IMG/VR virus record: IMGVR_UViG_3300036780_000209
Span: 1-64,000 of that record
Source of the DNA: a virus
Direction: 5' to 3' (one strand)
Length of the DNA: 64,000 nt
Positions 8,510 through 64,000 of this stretch are shown here, piece after piece. Each line of letters begins with the position of its first letter. Positions within the stretch are counted from its first letter, which is position 1. Made by a program: the position numbers and the translations under genes. The notes below the pieces were generated by a model. That model did not search any database and was not told where the DNA came from. It saw nothing but the letters and a program-made list of their open reading frames with translations.

Positions 8510-9004
8510 GTGCCCGAGTCTACTGAACGATGGCTGCCGATCCCTGGTTATGAAGGCTTGTATGAGGCTTCTTCCGACGGTCGGATCCGGAGCAACCGGC
8601 GACAAGGTTCCCGGGGCGGCCTCAAGAAGCTCAGCCTTAATCGGCATGGTTACCTGGAAGTAAACCTCTCGCGCGATAACAGCAGCCGGACATGGCCGGT
8701 TCATCAACTGATCACGCTTGCTTTTCATGGCCTCCGGCCACCTGGCCTGGAAGCTAGGCATCTCGATACCAACAGCCTGAATAATCGCGCCCAGAATCTC
8801 TGCTGGGGAACTTCCGCTGAGAACAAGCAGGACACCCTGGCACACGGCAAACACAACATGGCCAGTAAAGATAAATGCCCTCAAGATCATGAGTACACCC
8901 CGGAGAACACCTACCGTCCTCCTGGCCGACCGAACAACCGCCAGTGTCAGATCTGTCGGCTCGCTCAGGGCGCAGCGAGGCGAGCTGAGTCCAGGTTGCA
9001 CTAG
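8510..9004 (+). CDS. NUMOD4-HNH homing endonuclease
   Basis: ERWLPIPGYEGLYEASSDGRIRS (NUMOD4); VHQLI...ARHLD...NNRAQNLCWGTSAEN (HNH); CPQDHEY...CQIC zinc motif. Confidence 0.92.
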   Translation: MPESTERWLPIPGYEGLYEASSDGRIRSNRRQGSRGGLKKLSLNRHGYLEVNLSRDNSSRTWPVHQLITLAFHGLRPPGLEARHLDTNSLNNRAQNLCWGTSAENKQDTLAHGKHNMASKDKCPQDHEYTPENTYRPPGRPNNRQCQICRLAQGAARRAESRLH

Positions 9005-59124: not shown

Positions 59125-61593
59125 TCAGTTCCTTCCGAGCGGAATGGACTCCCAGCGTCCGCCCCGACAGTACCAAATTTCCCCGACAGGCCACTTCATC
59201 TTCTTCACCTGCGGCAGGAAGCGCACGGGCTGCTTGCTGTAGGCGAGCGTGATGTGCGGGAGGAAGCCATGCTTGGCCGGGATGGCCGAGATGCCGTGCC
59301 CCTTCAGGAAATCCAGGAGACTGCCGTGGATCTCGTGGCCGCCGGGGATGTCCACCAGGGCGTGCAGGGCATGGTTGCCCTTGTTCGCGAAAGTGCCGGA
59401 CCCCTGGGTCGTGGCCTCGAACGGCCGCTGGGTCTTGGCCCACTGGCGCACCAGGTCCTCCAGCTTGCCGAGCTGCCTCTCAGGATGATCATCTTCCTCG
59501 CCCAGGTAGAGCAAGGTGATGTGCATCTTGGAGCGCGCCTCAGTCTCGTGCCGCAACGGCTTCATGATGTCCCGCAGGTGGTCGAGCACCTCAGCGGGAG
59601 GCACGATCGCCACCATCATCGACTTGCTGATGCCGTCGGCCCCGTCACGGGAGGGGACCGTGCGGACGGCCGCCGTGCTCGGCGCGAACGGCTGGGTGGT
59701 CTCGACATGCCTGATCACCGTCGCGCCCGGAGCCATGTACTGCCGCAGGCCGGCCGGGTGCGTCATGTTCCCGAGGTGCCCGTGGGGCTCGACCTCGTGG
59801 ATGTGGTGCCTGCCGATCGTCTCGGCCCACTCGCGTGCCGTGCCCAGGTCTCCCGACATGTAAATCCGGCCGCCAGGATGCGGCGCGGTCAGCTCCGTTC
59901 CCGGTTCCAGCATCTCCGCTGAGGCATGGAAGAGCCGCTCTGGCCGCTGAGCAGCCGCCTCCCTGGGGATCCCCAGGTGCTCGTAGTCGGCTGCGCCGCG
60001 CCCGCTGTGCCTGATGGTGATGGTGCGGTCCATCGGGTGCCACTCCCACCCGGGGTCCGGCTTGACCGCGCCGGGGGCCGACGGGTCGCGTTTCATGTCC
60101 TCGCGAGGGTAGCGGAGGTGACCGGGGGCCTCGGTGTCGTCGCCTCCGGGGTGGTGCCAGACGTAAGCACCGTGCAGCTTCACCTGCGCCCCGGGGCGGA
60201 ACCGCACCTCGGCCTCGCTGTCCAGGGACCTGTGCTGGCCGTACCAGATCGGGTGGTCACGGGGGAAGTGCTGGTCCGGGTGATCCACCTGGCCCTGCCA
60301 GAGCACGACCTTCTTTCCCGGCCAGGCATACCCCTTGATGGCCATGTCGGGGTCAGCCGTCCAGTGCATGCCGGTGGTAGCGTGCTCCAGGTCCTCTCCT
60401 GCAGGACGGTGCTCCCCCCGCCAGACGTGCGTGCCGGGCTCGGGGTTCTTCGCCACCTCCAGGAAATGGCGCCGGATTCCCCGCCACCCTTCGGGCTCGT
60501 CATACCGCTGGAAGACGGCCCTCTGGGCAGGCGGGAGGTCCTCGTCCCGGAAGGAGGCTGTCTTGCCCTTGGCGTACCACTCGTCGCAGGTGTAGTCGAA
60601 CATGATGCCGCCCTTGACCAGGGTGCAGCTTCCGGGCTCCGAATCACCCGGCGCGGGGCGGAACATGACGCAGCTCCCGCAGCGCTTCTCCCCCTCGGCC
60701 GGGCGGTAATTCACCTGGCCCTTGTTCTTCCTGCGAGCTGCCCATTTGCCCCTGAACGGATCATCATGCTCGCCCCGGCGCATATATGCCTTGTATTCCT
60801 CGGGGAATTGCTGCCTGCGCGTATTACGCCAGTGATCACTGTCCCTGAGATGGCTCTCGCTGTCCTCCGGCCAGTAGTCCCCGTGCTCTGGAGTGCGGAC
60901 GTAAGGGATGCCCTTCCCGAGCTTCCACGCAGAAACCAGGCGGTGATGACCCTGGCCGACTTCCCATTCGCCCTCTCCGTGGTGGGCAATCTCAACCGGG
61001 TGCGTCACTCCGTGCTGGCGGACATGATCAGTCAGCTCAGCCATGTACTTCGGTTCCCGGTGATGCAGTGCCTCGGAAACATAACTGATGTCCCGGCCCG
61101 GGTAATCACTGAAAGTGAGCTTGCCGAATTCATGAGGATGAAGAGTGCCGCTCTCGCCTTCGTCCTCGTCAGGATCCTGTATCGAGCCCGTGCTCGAAAA
61201 GAGCAGCGCACGCAGCTTGCCCAGCAGGTTATGGGGGTGCTGGTCGAGGTACTTCTCGATGACGTTGCCCGGGTCGGACCACCCTTCGCCTTCCCCGCTG
61301 AACGCCTCCGAGCGCATGTCGTGGATGTACTGCCACAGGGACCTGGCCTGGCGGGTGCGCTGGGGCTCGTCGAGCTTGAGGATCGCCCGGAGCTGGGCAG
61401 CGACGGCACGGGCCTCGGTGAGGAGCGCGGGGTGGAAGTCAGCCGCGCTGTGCTCGGGCAGATCAGGAGGTTCCACTGCCCAAGTGTTATTCGTCAGATC
61501 ATAAGCGGCATAGGGCTTGATCTGCCGGATATCATAGGCATCGTGGTTAACGTACCAGGTCATATCAAAAGAGTCACGCGCTCGCTGTGGCAT
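59125..61593 (-). CDS. Polyvalent protein, C-terminal part: C-lobe of pol-beta nucleotidyltransferase, ParB-like, HiPIP-like, two ART-like domains, 2H phosphoesterase
   Basis: TWYVN...DIRQIKPYAAYDL; GQGHHRL; YRPA..KRCGSCVMF...C...C..W; VWRG...MHWT...SEAEV; LFHAS...IYMS...HEVEP; HITL...HITL. AAGGAG RBS + ATG 61593. Confidence 0.8.
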   Translation of the reverse strand: MPQRARDSFDMTWYVNHDAYDIRQIKPYAAYDLTNNTWAVEPPDLPEHSAADFHPALLTEARAVAAQLRAILKLDEPQRTRQARSLWQYIHDMRSEAFSGEGEGWSDPGNVIEKYLDQHPHNLLGKLRALLFSSTGSIQDPDEDEGESGTLHPHEFGKLTFSDYPGRDISYVSEALHHREPKYMAELTDHVRQHGVTHPVEIAHHGEGEWEVGQGHHRLVSAWKLGKGIPYVRTPEHGDYWPEDSESHLRDSDHWRNTRRQQFPEEYKAYMRRGEHDDPFRGKWAARRKNKGQVNYRPAEGEKRCGSCVMFRPAPGDSEPGSCTLVKGGIMFDYTCDEWYAKGKTASFRDEDLPPAQRAVFQRYDEPEGWRGIRRHFLEVAKNPEPGTHVWRGEHRPAGEDLEHATTGMHWTADPDMAIKGYAWPGKKVVLWQGQVDHPDQHFPRDHPIWYGQHRSLDSEAEVRFRPGAQVKLHGAYVWHHPGGDDTEAPGHLRYPREDMKRDPSAPGAVKPDPGWEWHPMDRTITIRHSGRGAADYEHLGIPREAAAQRPERLFHASAEMLEPGTELTAPHPGGRIYMSGDLGTAREWAETIGRHHIHEVEPHGHLGNMTHPAGLRQYMAPGATVIRHVETTQPFAPSTAAVRTVPSRDGADGISKSMMVAIVPPAEVLDHLRDIMKPLRHETEARSKMHITLLYLGEEDDHPERQLGKLEDLVRQWAKTQRPFEATTQGSGTFANKGNHALHALVDIPGGHEIHGSLLDFLKGHGISAIPAKHGFLPHITLAYSKQPVRFLPQVKKMKWPVGEIWYCRGGRWESIPLGRN

Positions 61594-62176
61594 CACGCTG
61601 CTCCTTCTGCTTGGCACGGATACGTCTCTTAGATTCCCGCTCTATATGACGCCTGTGCTCCGGATCCTGGGCTCTTTGCTTTGCATGATCAGCAAGAATA
61701 GCTTCCTTATTCCGATCATAAAACCCCGTCTTAGACTCCCTCGCGCATTTCCGGCAATTCCGTCTTCCATCCTTGAGGAAGAAGTACTCACAGCCATGCT
61801 TAGGGCATCTTTCCTTGCGCGAATTCCTATGCGTGCCATGCCTGACTGAATCCAGCATGTTCTCGCTCTTGGTGCCCCACTCAAGATTACTAGGAGAGTT
61901 ATCTTGATTTTCGCCATTAAGATGACGAGCTTCGAACTCGTCAGGGCACGGACCGTTAACTGCCTCGCAGACGAGTTGGTGGATATATCCACGGGTAATT
62001 TCGCCCTCACGTGACATAGCTATATAGAGGTAACCCTTCCTGTCAGCTTGCAGCTTCAAGAAGTTGCCGCCACGGAGCCCGCGCCGTGTCTGCCGGGGGA
62101 GGCTCCGAGCGCGCCCGCAGCTAGACACCTCGTACAGCTCCTCCCAGTCCCTGACCGGAAACCAGATCTCGGTCAT
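61574..62176 (-). CDS. NUMOD4-HNH homing endonuclease inserted in the polyvalent gene
   Basis: EIWFPVRDWEELYEVSSCGRARS; IHQLV...ARHLNG...DNSPSNLEWGTKSEN; AGGAG RBS inside the upstream ORF. Confidence 0.92.
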   Translation of the reverse strand: MTEIWFPVRDWEELYEVSSCGRARSLPRQTRRGLRGGNFLKLQADRKGYLYIAMSREGEITRGYIHQLVCEAVNGPCPDEFEARHLNGENQDNSPSNLEWGTKSENMLDSVRHGTHRNSRKERCPKHGCEYFFLKDGRRNCRKCARESKTGFYDRNKEAILADHAKQRAQDPEHRRHIERESKRRIRAKQKEQRDATASA

Positions 62177-64000
62177 CGCGCTCTCCTGGCAGATGATAAT
62201 CCGGGTCATTGAGTGCAGAACGCATCAGCTTGTTAAAGAAACCATCAATCTCAGACTCGGAGATAGAAGAGTATCCTGGATTATCCCGATAGAAGGTGGA
62301 ATAATTTATTCCTACCAAGATATCCAGGTCGTTATTACCTTCCAGTTCAGGTCCGGTCCAGCGGCTCGCCTCGCTGCCACTCAAATATACCTTGCTCCAA
62401 GCCTGCCAGTGGACAAAGCCCTGATCCCGGCAGAAGGCATCCCACTTCTCCATGACGGATTCACGAACTTCCGGCCGCAGCTCGCCGGCCTCGGTGAAGA
62501 GCCGGTGGTCCAGGCCATAAGTTGGGCCGAAGATGCCCCGGGCAGGCATCCAGCGAGTGCCCTGGGGCAGCGGAGCGGACAAGCGGCTGACCGGCCCGGC
62601 AGTCGCTGCCTCGTGCGAAATCCTGTCGTCGTTTCCCTCGTGAAGACGGGCCTCGATCTGGTGCGGGCGGAAGGCAATCGCCGAAGTATTAGCGGCAGCT
62701 CCACGGCTGGACTTCTCGAACTCATTGCCGTAGGTAATGCCGTCATGACCCTGATCTTCGAGGTGCTTCCTGAAGCGCTGGGCGATCTCGTATTTGTCTG
62801 GGTGCGCATTCAGCCACCCCATCGCGTAGGTGTGCTGAGCGGTGTGGTGATGGCCCGCGCGCATCGGGTCCGGCTCGCGTCGGTCCCGCATGCGGTCGCC
62901 ATGGTCAACGAAGTGATAGGCCGGGATCTCTTCTCTCAGTTCGTCGTGCCAGCCTTCCTTCTGCGCGTCCCGGTACGTCGCCATGTCGAGGTGCTTCTCC
63001 GGATGATTACCCGCCTTCCACTCGTGCTCGTAAACCTCCTGATCCATGTCGTGCTCGGAGTGGTAGTGCTTAGGGTTCCGAATGTTCAGGCGGGCATGCA
63101 CGATATGACCAGCCGGCTGATCGTCAGGGTCTTCCTGCTCGTAATCCGGGTTCCGGTGCTCGCCCTTACTGAATTCTCTGGCAACGTGATGATCAGCGGT
63201 GAAGTGCGATCCCATAAGGGTGTTCCAGTGCGAGGTATCGCTTTCATCGTGATCGAATTCAAGCGGACTGAAGTTATCGAACTTGGCGAAGCGATGCGGG
63301 CTCCCGTGAAACCACTCGCTGCCTTTGGTATGTGGGTTAGCCAGCGGGCGAGGCTGATGCGTCATATCGAAGAGCTTTAGCTGGCTATTCGGAAGCGCCA
63401 CGCCCACCTTGATGTTCCCCTGGTCGCCCTTGGTGATCTCTGGCGAAATTGATTCCACTCGATCCATAGGAATACGCTCACGGGTCCTGATGTAATCGTC
63501 AGCCGAGTGAGTAAACCACTTATCCGCCAGCTCATGGCGGATCTTGAGCACGTGCCCGGTGCCATTCCTGGGCAAGTAGGAGACGGCACTACGCGGATCG
63601 ACGGCCGCATTAGTACCCTCCCAGTCAGCAATCGTCCCGCGCCGGTCTGACTGGAGGTACCCGCGATCACGGGCCTGCGCCAGTTCATCGGCTGAAACGC
63701 CCCGGTAGACATGATGCACGGGCTCATCGCGGACCTTTTTCGGATATGCCAGGGCATTGGTGACCCCGGGGATGCCATGGTCCCAGACCTCGAAGTGAAC
63801 CGGTCCCTCCCCCCTACCCGCCGGGTGGTGAAGCCTGCGCGACTCGCCAGTCTCGACGCTGTATCCACTGCGCGGGTGGATAACCCGGTTAGCCTCTAGC
63901 CGCCTGGGATGGAACCAGTTCTCCAGGTGCTGGTCCAGCTCGTCATTGGTCATGGCCCCCTTGCGCAAACCAGGGAGCGAGACAGCCGCCGTGTGCTCCC
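62121..64000 (-). CDS. 5'-partial polyvalent protein, N-terminal part: two ART-like domains and the N-lobe of a pol-beta nucleotidyltransferase
   Basis: Frame is open to the window edge; VYRGVS...; WFHGSPHRFAKFD...SHFTAD...GHDGITY (ART-PolyVal-like); YLSGSEAS...DLDILV (hG[GS]...DxD). Confidence 0.8.
   Translation of the reverse strand, partial: EHTAAVSLPGLRKGAMTNDELDQHLENWFHPRRLEANRVIHPRSGYSVETGESRRLHHPAGRGEGPVHFEVWDHGIPGVTNALAYPKKVRDEPVHHVYRGVSADELAQARDRGYLQSDRRGTIADWEGTNAAVDPRSAVSYLPRNGTGHVLKIRHELADKWFTHSADDYIRTRERIPMDRVESISPEITKGDQGNIKVGVALPNSQLKLFDMTHQPRPLANPHTKGSEWFHGSPHRFAKFDNFSPLEFDHDESDTSHWNTLMGSHFTADHHVAREFSKGEHRNPDYEQEDPDDQPAGHIVHARLNIRNPKHYHSEHDMDQEVYEHEWKAGNHPEKHLDMATYRDAQKEGWHDELREEIPAYHFVDHGDRMRDRREPDPMRAGHHHTAQHTYAMGWLNAHPDKYEIAQRFRKHLEDQGHDGITYGNEFEKSSRGAAANTSAIAFRPHQIEARLHEGNDDRISHEAATAGPVSRLSAPLPQGTRWMPARGIFGPTYGLDHRLFTEAGELRPEVRESVMEKWDAFCRDQGFVHWQAWSKVYLSGSEASRWTGPELEGNNDLDILVGINYSTFYRDNPGYSSISESEIDGFFNKLMRSALNDPDYHLPGERDDRDLVSGQGLGGAVRGV

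Follow-up and report, generated by a model that had tools for sequence, protein, structure and literature searches.

A nucleotidyltransferase-like module of an actinophage-like polyvalent protein gene split by a free-standing HNH homing endonuclease gene

What becomes of an enzyme when a homing endonuclease gene (HEG) comes to lie in the middle of its gene? This question is raised by the 64,000-nt window analyzed here (positions 1–64,000 of IMG/VR record IMGVR_UViG_3300036780_000209), which belongs to the genome of a 166-kb, actinophage-like phage. On its minus strand, a NUMOD4/HNH_3 gene interrupts the pol-beta-like nucleotidyltransferase (NTase) module of a gene for a polyvalent protein of approximately 2,150 amino acids. 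We consider it probable (about 0.85) that the free-standing HEG has made a two-polypeptide enzyme out of the host protein, as with nrdA and mobE of phage Aeh1.

Three overlapping reading frames from one gene

The insertion turned one gene into three overlapping ORFs, all on the same strand: a 1,334-aa N-piece, the HNH gene, and a C-piece of about 822 aa, with the HNH gene overlapping both host pieces. The ORF lists and the alignment with contiguous homologues place the N-piece at 62121–64000 and past the window to genome position 66125. The final ~127 homologous residues of the N-piece constitute the N-half of the NTase-like module. Its host-coded end reads ...LNDPDYHLPGERDD and is followed by an out-of-frame tail of 16 codons, RDLVSGQGLGGAVRGV, with a stop codon at 62123–62121 (tail and stop, 62121–62171, minus strand). 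The tail is the 5′ part of the HNH gene read in another frame, and no equivalent of it was found in the aligned homologues. The C-piece (59125–61593, minus strand; 822 aa from the ATG at 61593), assigned from its ORF, the alignment, and a Pfam match to 2_5_RNA_ligase2/LigT, reads MPQRARDSFDMTWYVN...PYAAYDL. It comprises the C-half of the NTase-like module with a helical subdomain, followed by ParB-like and ART-like modules and, at the C-terminus, a 2H phosphoesterase. The Shine-Dalgarno sequence of the C-piece, AAGGAG (61601–61606, minus strand), lies within the 3′ end of the HNH gene, with a spacer of 7 nt to the ATG. Neither NTase half contains a frameshift or a stop codon. What the initial annotation had stated about the sequence between 61480 and 62400 holds throughout.

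The HNH gene runs from the ATG at 62176 to the TGA at 61576–61574 (61574–62176, minus strand) and encodes 200 aa. Its product matched NUMOD4 (3.8e-8) and HNH_3 (1.7e-14) in Pfam and, among the PHROG HNH families, PHROG 1492 (7e-52). The overlaps amount to 56 nt with the N-piece and 20 nt with the C-piece. A Shine-Dalgarno-like GGAGAG (62181–62186, minus strand), located 4–6 nt before the HNH start codon, is made of host codons (G-E). The 603-nt ORF occupies the entire insert and is out of frame with both host halves. Across the HEG there are 19 stops in the frame of the N-piece, the first after 16 codons, and four in that of the C-piece. The host frame is closed across the HEG; the gene is truly split and not read through.

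Introns or inteins often house phage HEGs, and in fractured genes split inteins flank a free-standing HEG (Dassa et al. 2009, PMC2677866), so that the host gene likewise consists of two ORFs with the HEG between them. A group I or II intron, an intein, or a pair of split-intein halves whose splicing restores one protein is nevertheless an extremely improbable account of this locus. A search of the insert returned no Rfam family at E ≤ 10 except one chance lncRNA row, and no Rfam intron was found at another split locus, L009, either. The insert is wholly filled by an ORF that is in frame with neither half. In addition, unlike in fractured genes, homology to unsplit relatives reaches the junction on both sides, leaving tails of 16 and ~6 residues, which are too short for intein halves; these tails have no Pfam match, and no Hint domain was detected at the N-piece end or the C-piece start. 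The initial annotation of a single NTase-like domain interrupted by a free-standing HNH gene, with neither an intron nor an intein, is supported.

The NTase-like module and repeated insertion at one loop

The putative NTase signature (62322–62378, minus strand) was located from the sequence and an AF2 model; it consists of G-S (62378–62373) at the end of beta-1 and D-L-D (62330–62322) on beta-2. The corresponding columns (G68, S69, D84, and D86) are invariant across all 19 unsplit homologues and all five split loci. A contiguous homologue, P0014:215-495, was modeled with AF2 (pLDDT 85, pTM 0.78); G68/S69 are on E62-67/H68-71 and D84/D86 are on E84-91. The split position corresponds to the loop at ~130–136, with strands 126–129 and 137–143 on either side. 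The model thus places the two halves in one predicted fold, not in unrelated ones. Residues 22–164 gave a modest fold match in VIA-align to the minimal NTases 1ylq, 8xeh, 1no5, and 2rff (Z 5.4–6.0). The top ~50 Foldseek rows were nearly all NTases, though with E ≥ 0.02. No curated family in Pfam, NCBIfam, PHROG, or the PDB profiles matched the module. The candidates for the third carboxylate vary: strand 137–143 opens with D or H, PYAAY is followed by D, N, or E, and no invariant acidic residue for this role was identified among the aligned homologues. The motifs and the modest fold match suggest that the module is an NTase.

Contiguity across the junction, which the initial annotation had proposed as a check, is the rule among homologues: of 20 polyvalent homologues, 19 are uninterrupted at the junction, as are about 140 of the 150 cluster representatives and 78 of 79 informative IMG/VR loci. 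Both BRock gp39 (from a Streptomyces phage) and LuckySocke gp186 cross it in one ORF. The same surface beta-hairpin loop is, on the other hand, split in four more phage contigs (L009, L011, L013, and L014). L014 carries an orthologous HNH gene (49% identity over the full length), in which the region of the H..N..N motif is conserved and GAGG stands at the place equivalent to GGAGAG in the window. This endonuclease gene had been overlooked entirely by the gene caller. The loop of the other three contigs is occupied by an unrelated gene of the HTH+Endonuclease_7 (endonuclease VII) type. In every split locus, the C-piece start either overlaps the stop codon of the HEG or lies directly beside it. 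A third endonuclease lineage is found at the same loop in five further loci (L024 and L101–L104), where it lies out of frame within an unbroken host ORF, with no host-frame stop across the HEG in any of the five. The fact that these five loci tolerate an insertion of ~210 aa indicates that the loop is permissive. One loop has been struck repeatedly by different selfish genes in related phages.

The window derives from a metagenomic IMG/VR contig, and a chimeric join produced by assembly or sequencing could mimic an insertion. Four contigs assembled independently from other samples share the architecture, and the ORF overlaps, Shine-Dalgarno sequences, and homologous flanks are mutually coherent, which leaves an artefact only a negligible chance.

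The HEGs occur sporadically at a fixed site among otherwise uninterrupted homologous genes. Across the split loci, the HEGs (45–58% identity) are about as diverged as their hosts, which offers no sign that homing took place recently among the genomes sampled. A search for a closely related HEG-less allele found none.

The five split loci retain 223 of 240 residues (93%) at the columns conserved in unsplit homologues, including G-S, DxD, and PYAAY, which points to selection on both halves. These values also bear on the possibility that the insertion killed the NTase module, so that the pieces are made without any enzyme being rebuilt and the restart is kept for the expression of the downstream modules. 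Polyvalent proteins are modular and vary in domain order (Iyer et al. 2017, PMC5512222), and a phage could thus lose one module. A dead module is, however, unlikely to stay conserved to such an extent while the HEGs have diverged so far, and to keep both halves free of frameshifts and stops. We consider the loss of the module unlikely. The contiguous homologues, the single predicted fold, and the four further splits instead favor two polypeptides that may reassemble, which was one of the two outcomes envisaged by the initial annotation.

Direct repeat and flanking codons

The other outcome, a bypass between matched codons or an RNA deletion of about 600 nt, drew on a direct repeat bracketing the HNH gene. 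The repeat is present: its upstream copy, GAGCGCGATGAC (62172–62183, minus strand), holds the HNH start codon, its downstream copy, GAGCGCGTGAC (61573–61583, minus strand), holds the stop codon, and the two match at 11/12 nt. The GAC codons at 62174–62172 and 61575–61573 are each in frame with their own half, as stated, a feature of the window only. The match is modestly above chance (p ~0.012), since 1.2% of random window pairs from the same genome (36 nt each, 600 nt apart) equal its score. No bracketing repeat was found at L009, L011, L013, or L014 (p 0.43–0.83), and the downstream copy falls in a 12-nt segment missing from L014. Given its absence from all four other split loci, the repeat is regarded as a lineage-specific feature, possibly due to chance, and as no part of a mechanism common to these elements.

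A precedent for a matched-codon hop is the mobA/gene 60 cassette of phage T4, in which a topoisomerase subunit is split and a 50-nt translational bypass operates; there, too, a HEG insertion breaks a phage enzyme gene. By analogy, beside the separate pieces, some ribosomes might hop from GAC 62174–62172 to GAC 61575–61573, or some transcripts might lose the RNA between the repeats, skipping the 599-nt HNH gene to give a continuous protein of ~2,150 aa. The matched GACs within the repeat are what such a hop would use, the joined ..PGERDDSFDM.. would have the same loop length as several contiguous homologues, and the homologue P0112 has LPGKLDDGSEFDQTWYVN at the junction position. T4 gene 60 has a stop codon directly following take-off, a take-off stem-loop, and a gap of only ~50 nt, defining signals that are, however, missing in the window. 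The codon after the putative take-off GAC is CGA, no stable RNA structure was predicted at this site (fold z +0.76), and the gap of 599 nt, 12 times that of gene 60, contains a complete ORF. The C-piece has its own strong Shine-Dalgarno sequence and ATG, no Rfam intron was detected, and the four split loci lacking the repeat all have intact halves. We therefore regard skipping as very improbable. If true, such skipping would far exceed in length any known programmed bypass or deletion.

The host codons beside the HEG are AT-rich, in agreement with the initial annotation. The GC content is 0.46–0.53 over 61475–62450 compared with ~0.65–0.70 in the surroundings. GC3 is 0.40–0.50 in the final 60 codons of the N-piece and 0.60–0.67 in the first 60 of the C-piece, as against 0.7–0.93 farther away. 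GC3 dips also flank the HEGs of L009 and L014, and the unsplit loci L010 and L008, with a similar genome GC, show no such dip. Judged by composition, low GC3 beside the HEG fits co-conversion of donor sequence during homing, and the stretches at 62177–62450 upstream and 61475–61573 downstream (minus strand) are putative co-conversion tracts.

Assembly from two pieces and relation to known systems

On the reading that we favor, a NUMOD4/HNH_3 HEG has been inserted into the surface beta-hairpin loop of the pol-beta-like NTase module; its ATG start codon lies among host codons and follows a GGAG that the host sequence supplies. The mRNA of the polyvalent protein would serve as the template for translating all three ORFs. 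The two host pieces may then associate non-covalently and rebuild the NTase fold, with alpha1, beta1 (G-S), beta2 (DxD), and beta3 contributed by the N-piece and beta4–6 and the helical subdomain by the C-piece. The HEG would spread by cleaving alleles that lack it, whose repair copies it in along with flanking donor codons.

The splitting of an enzyme gene by a HEG is an already known kind of event. The nrdA gene of Aeromonas phage Aeh1 is reportedly split by the free-standing HEG mobE, which Friedrich et al. are said to have described in 2007 under the term 'genes in pieces'. The initial annotation had invoked this precedent, and it is apt: in both cases, a free-standing HNH-family HEG lies within the catalytic domain of an enzyme and yields two separately translated pieces with short insertion-derived tails, without RNA or protein splicing. 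The Aeh1 NrdA pieces assemble via such tails (Crona et al. 2011, PMC3045599), whereas assembly is predicted here. The present case also differs in that the interrupted host gene codes not for an essential RNR but for an accessory module within a polyvalent protein, that the HEG is of the NUMOD4/HNH_3 type, and that two other HEG lineages occupy the same loop in related phages.

The ShiLan type of insertion is an out-of-frame 'hidden' HNH gene within the methylase of an actinophage (Arsenault, Gosselin, Gogarten 2025, PMC11855218). The window shares with this type a HEG that has neither intron nor intein and lies within an enzyme gene of an actinophage, and it differs in its host frame, which is closed across the HEG. 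The exact ShiLan layout is that of L024 and L101–L104, at the NTase loop. The pol-beta NTase, ParB-like, and 2H phosphoesterase modules of the very large multi-enzyme protein in the window are all named as typical components in a description of polyvalent proteins from phages and conjugative elements (Iyer et al. 2017, PMC5512222). Unlike in that description, the NTase-like module here has no Pfam model. HEG-split members are unmentioned there, and the words 'homing' and 'split' are absent from the text.

The locus adds a clear actinophage case, a predicted two-piece enzyme, to the few enzymes that a free-standing HEG has divided into functional fragments. It also warns annotators that two pieces may be one functional gene. 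Together with its relatives, it forms a natural series at one loop of an uncharacterized NTase-like domain: intact, split by two unrelated endonuclease families, and read through with an out-of-frame third lineage. The series provides a tractable system for asking how selfish nucleases choose and share target sites and whether it is fragment complementation or a tolerant loop that lets a host protein survive them.

The split locus and its three overlapping reading frames

The nucleotidyltransferase (NTase) domain of the polyvalent protein is interrupted by an HNH gene that is accompanied by neither an intron nor an intein, as the initial annotation had correctly read, and its coordinates and motifs were all borne out when the ORFs and the sequence were read again. 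The phage genome carrying the split gene (GC 66.7%) is a 166,498-bp IMG/VR virus rated as complete by CheckV, and the window covers its first 64 kb. Three ORFs on the minus strand overlap one another: the upstream host ORF, or N-piece (1,334 aa; genome 66125–62121, minus strand); the putative homing endonuclease gene (HEG), which encodes 200 residues with NUMOD4 and HNH_3 domains (ATG at 62176 to TGA at 61576–61574, minus strand) and shows strong PHROG HNH matches; and the downstream host ORF, or C-piece (~822 aa; ATG at 61593, minus strand), with an AAGGAG located upstream at a 7-nt spacer and a 2H phosphoesterase domain at its end. The homologous sequence of the N-piece ends in ...LNDPDYHLPGERDD and is followed by a tail of 16 residues, which is HEG sequence read in a different frame, giving the C-terminal peptide ..PGERDDRDLVSGQGLGGAVRGV. 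The C-piece has the N-terminus (M)PQRARDSFDMTWYVN.. and reads MPQRARDSFDMTWYVN...PYAAYDL from its start.

Three candidate starts are present for the C-piece (window 61563, 61593, and 61617). In the public gene call (P0026, 812 aa), the C-piece begins at the ATG at 61563, which has no Shine-Dalgarno sequence and loses the conserved S-F-D; the ATG at 61593 behind AAGGAG is the better fit. A scan for promoters and terminators detected no HEG-specific signals. The GC composition of the HNH gene is mosaic: 0.63–0.65 in the first ~170 nt (the NUMOD4 part; window 62000–62224) and 0.48–0.53 in the remainder.

One domain on both sides of the junction

Contiguity of homologues across the junction, which the initial annotation had proposed as a check, was evident in three sets, the two halves lying back to back in 19 of 20 polyvalent-protein homologues from a large protein collection, about 140 of the best 150 cluster representatives, and 78 of 79 informative IMG/VR loci. 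The whole module, NTase-like plus helical, also occurs as one stand-alone protein of ~300–330 aa in the Streptomyces phages BRock (gp39, 329 aa; L001:3965–4954) and LuckySocke (gp186; L002:3956–4942), and at a further locus (L067:2144–3031). In BRock-like Streptomyces phages, it adjoins an endolysin and a phosphatase. Although the module was found in 328 representative clusters at E ≤ 0.001, searches of Pfam, NCBIfam, PHROGs, and PDB profiles left the split domain without a name.

The two halves are predicted to form one fold rather than unrelated ones, since a single AlphaFold2-predicted fold spans the junction in a contiguous homologue (P0014:215–495, modelled from a 23-row alignment; pLDDT 85, pTM 0.78). 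In this confident model, beta-1 ends with G-S and beta-2 carries DxD, a signature canonical for pol-beta NTases. The split position corresponds to a hairpin loop (residues ~130–136) between strands 126–129 and 137–143; the predicted N-piece thus contributes the metal ligands together with their half of the sheet, and the C-piece the remaining strands and the helical subdomain. A fold search with the model gave Z scores of 5.4–6.0 to minimal NTases over residues 22–164, and the Foldseek list consisted almost entirely of NTases, yet with E values of at least 0.02. The fold searches back an NTase-like fold only moderately.

Recurrent insertion into the same loop

Five genomes, including that of the window, are split at the NTase loop by two unrelated endonuclease families. 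An orthologue of the window HNH (49% identity over the full length, no gaps) occupies the same loop in L014, where the TGA of the HNH gene overlaps the ATG of the C-piece as ATGA. This gene (L014:2920–3504, on an 86-kb contig) was uncalled by the source's gene caller, leaving a 550-nt 'empty' gap between the host pieces. In L009, the N-half protein (P0009) stops exactly at the junction; an HTH+Endonuclease_7 gene that overlaps it comes next, and a 160-aa C-half after that. L011 and L013 carry orthologues of this endonuclease in the same place (mutual identity 45–58%).

All five split loci taken together, the halves retain 223 of the 240 residues scored (columns at least 89% conserved in unsplit homologues), including the G-S, DxD, T140, PYAAY, and G.G..N...K motifs. 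The main alternative holds that the NTase module has lost its function and the downstream modules alone matter. We consider this unlikely; the HEG orthologues at the split loci have diverged to ~50% identity, and residue retention despite such divergence argues that the pieces are still working.

Two NUMOD4/HNH_3 paralogues with 36–40% identity to the HNH studied here (window 8510–9004, plus strand; genome 69032–69433, plus strand, L006:10813–11442) lie on the opposite strand from their large minus-strand neighbours. No NTase halves adjoin them or the remoter HNH relatives in IMG/VR (33–51% identity; L015–L019), and these genes are uninformative on the split site.

In five other contigs (L024 and L101–L104), a further HTH/Zn-ribbon+Endonuclease_7 lineage (49–62% mutual identity) lies wholly within a host ORF that stays unbroken, and is read in a different sense frame, as exemplified by the gene at L024:1894–2478 inside the host ORF L024:293–3601. 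Across the endonuclease gene, the host frame contains no stops in all five loci and the other frame contains 1–8; split-type endonuclease genes have 4–15 stops in the corresponding frame. The host protein of these five loci thus gains a loop of ~210 aa with no Pfam or other known domain. An intein was rejected for this read-through insert, because 585 nt of the 618-nt insertion are HEG sequence and no Pfam domain is present in the peptide read in the host frame. The layout matches the published one of the ShiLan element, a 'hidden' endonuclease embedded out of frame (PMC11855218), here in a new host gene. These inserts show that the loop tolerates large insertions, and a viable split at this position is therefore plausible. 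The same loop is expanded in frame, at about 2400–2500 of each locus, in the otherwise contiguous L039 and L040 (+54 nt) and L053 and L056 (+93 nt); such expansions may be normal variation of the loop or traces left by endonuclease genes since lost.

The bracketing repeat, signs of mobility, and the probable fate of the two pieces

Read-through of the HEG in the window is excluded by the 19 stops in the N-piece frame and 4 in the C-piece frame. The initial annotation had also described an imperfect direct repeat bracketing the HNH. The repeat is real and includes the start and stop codons of the HEG, but a mechanistic role is not supported: 1.2% of random window pairs in the genome score equally well, no bracketing repeat was found at the other four split loci (p 0.43–0.83), and the downstream copy lies within a 12-nt segment that is missing from L014. 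Because those four loci lack the repeat, target-site duplication for the 12-nt repeat was ruled out as a general mechanism. Matched-codon ribosomal bypass, or RNA deletion, of about 600 nt was the other proposal tied to the repeat, and it is highly improbable: the codon following the proposed take-off is CGA instead of a stop, the RNA around the take-off site folds no more stably than shuffled sequences, the 599-nt gap is made up of a complete ORF, and Rfam matched no intron family in the window or L009.

In the window, GC3 falls from 0.7–0.9 to 0.40–0.50 in the last 60 codons upstream of the HEG and is 0.60–0.67 in the first 60 codons downstream. Similar dips occur in L009 and L014 but not in the unsplit L010 and L008 of the same genomic GC. 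Dips of this kind are what flanking donor sequence would be expected to leave, and may reflect co-conversion during homing, with a phage of lower GC as the donor. No match to the region was obtained by Megablast in phage and plasmid collections, an N-half query in IMG/VR found no close relative or empty site, an exact-pattern scan did not find the reconstructed empty site, and a metagenome scan returned only the previously found locus (47% identity). The candidate native junctions (ERDD/SFDM, ER/DSFDM, and longer variants; slash, junction) are all compatible with the variable loop.

We consider a genes-in-pieces arrangement to be the probable reading, at roughly 85%. Its precedent is nrdA/mobE of phage Aeh1, in which the association of the pieces is helped by insertion-derived tails (PMC3045599), and the window split resembles it in both the separate pieces and such tails. 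All three ORFs would be translated from the polyvalent mRNA, the halves would reassemble non-covalently, possibly with the aid of their tails as in Aeh1, and the HNH would act on HEG-less alleles. What the locus adds to this precedent is a multi-family hot spot, together with a series of intact, split, and read-through forms at one loop.
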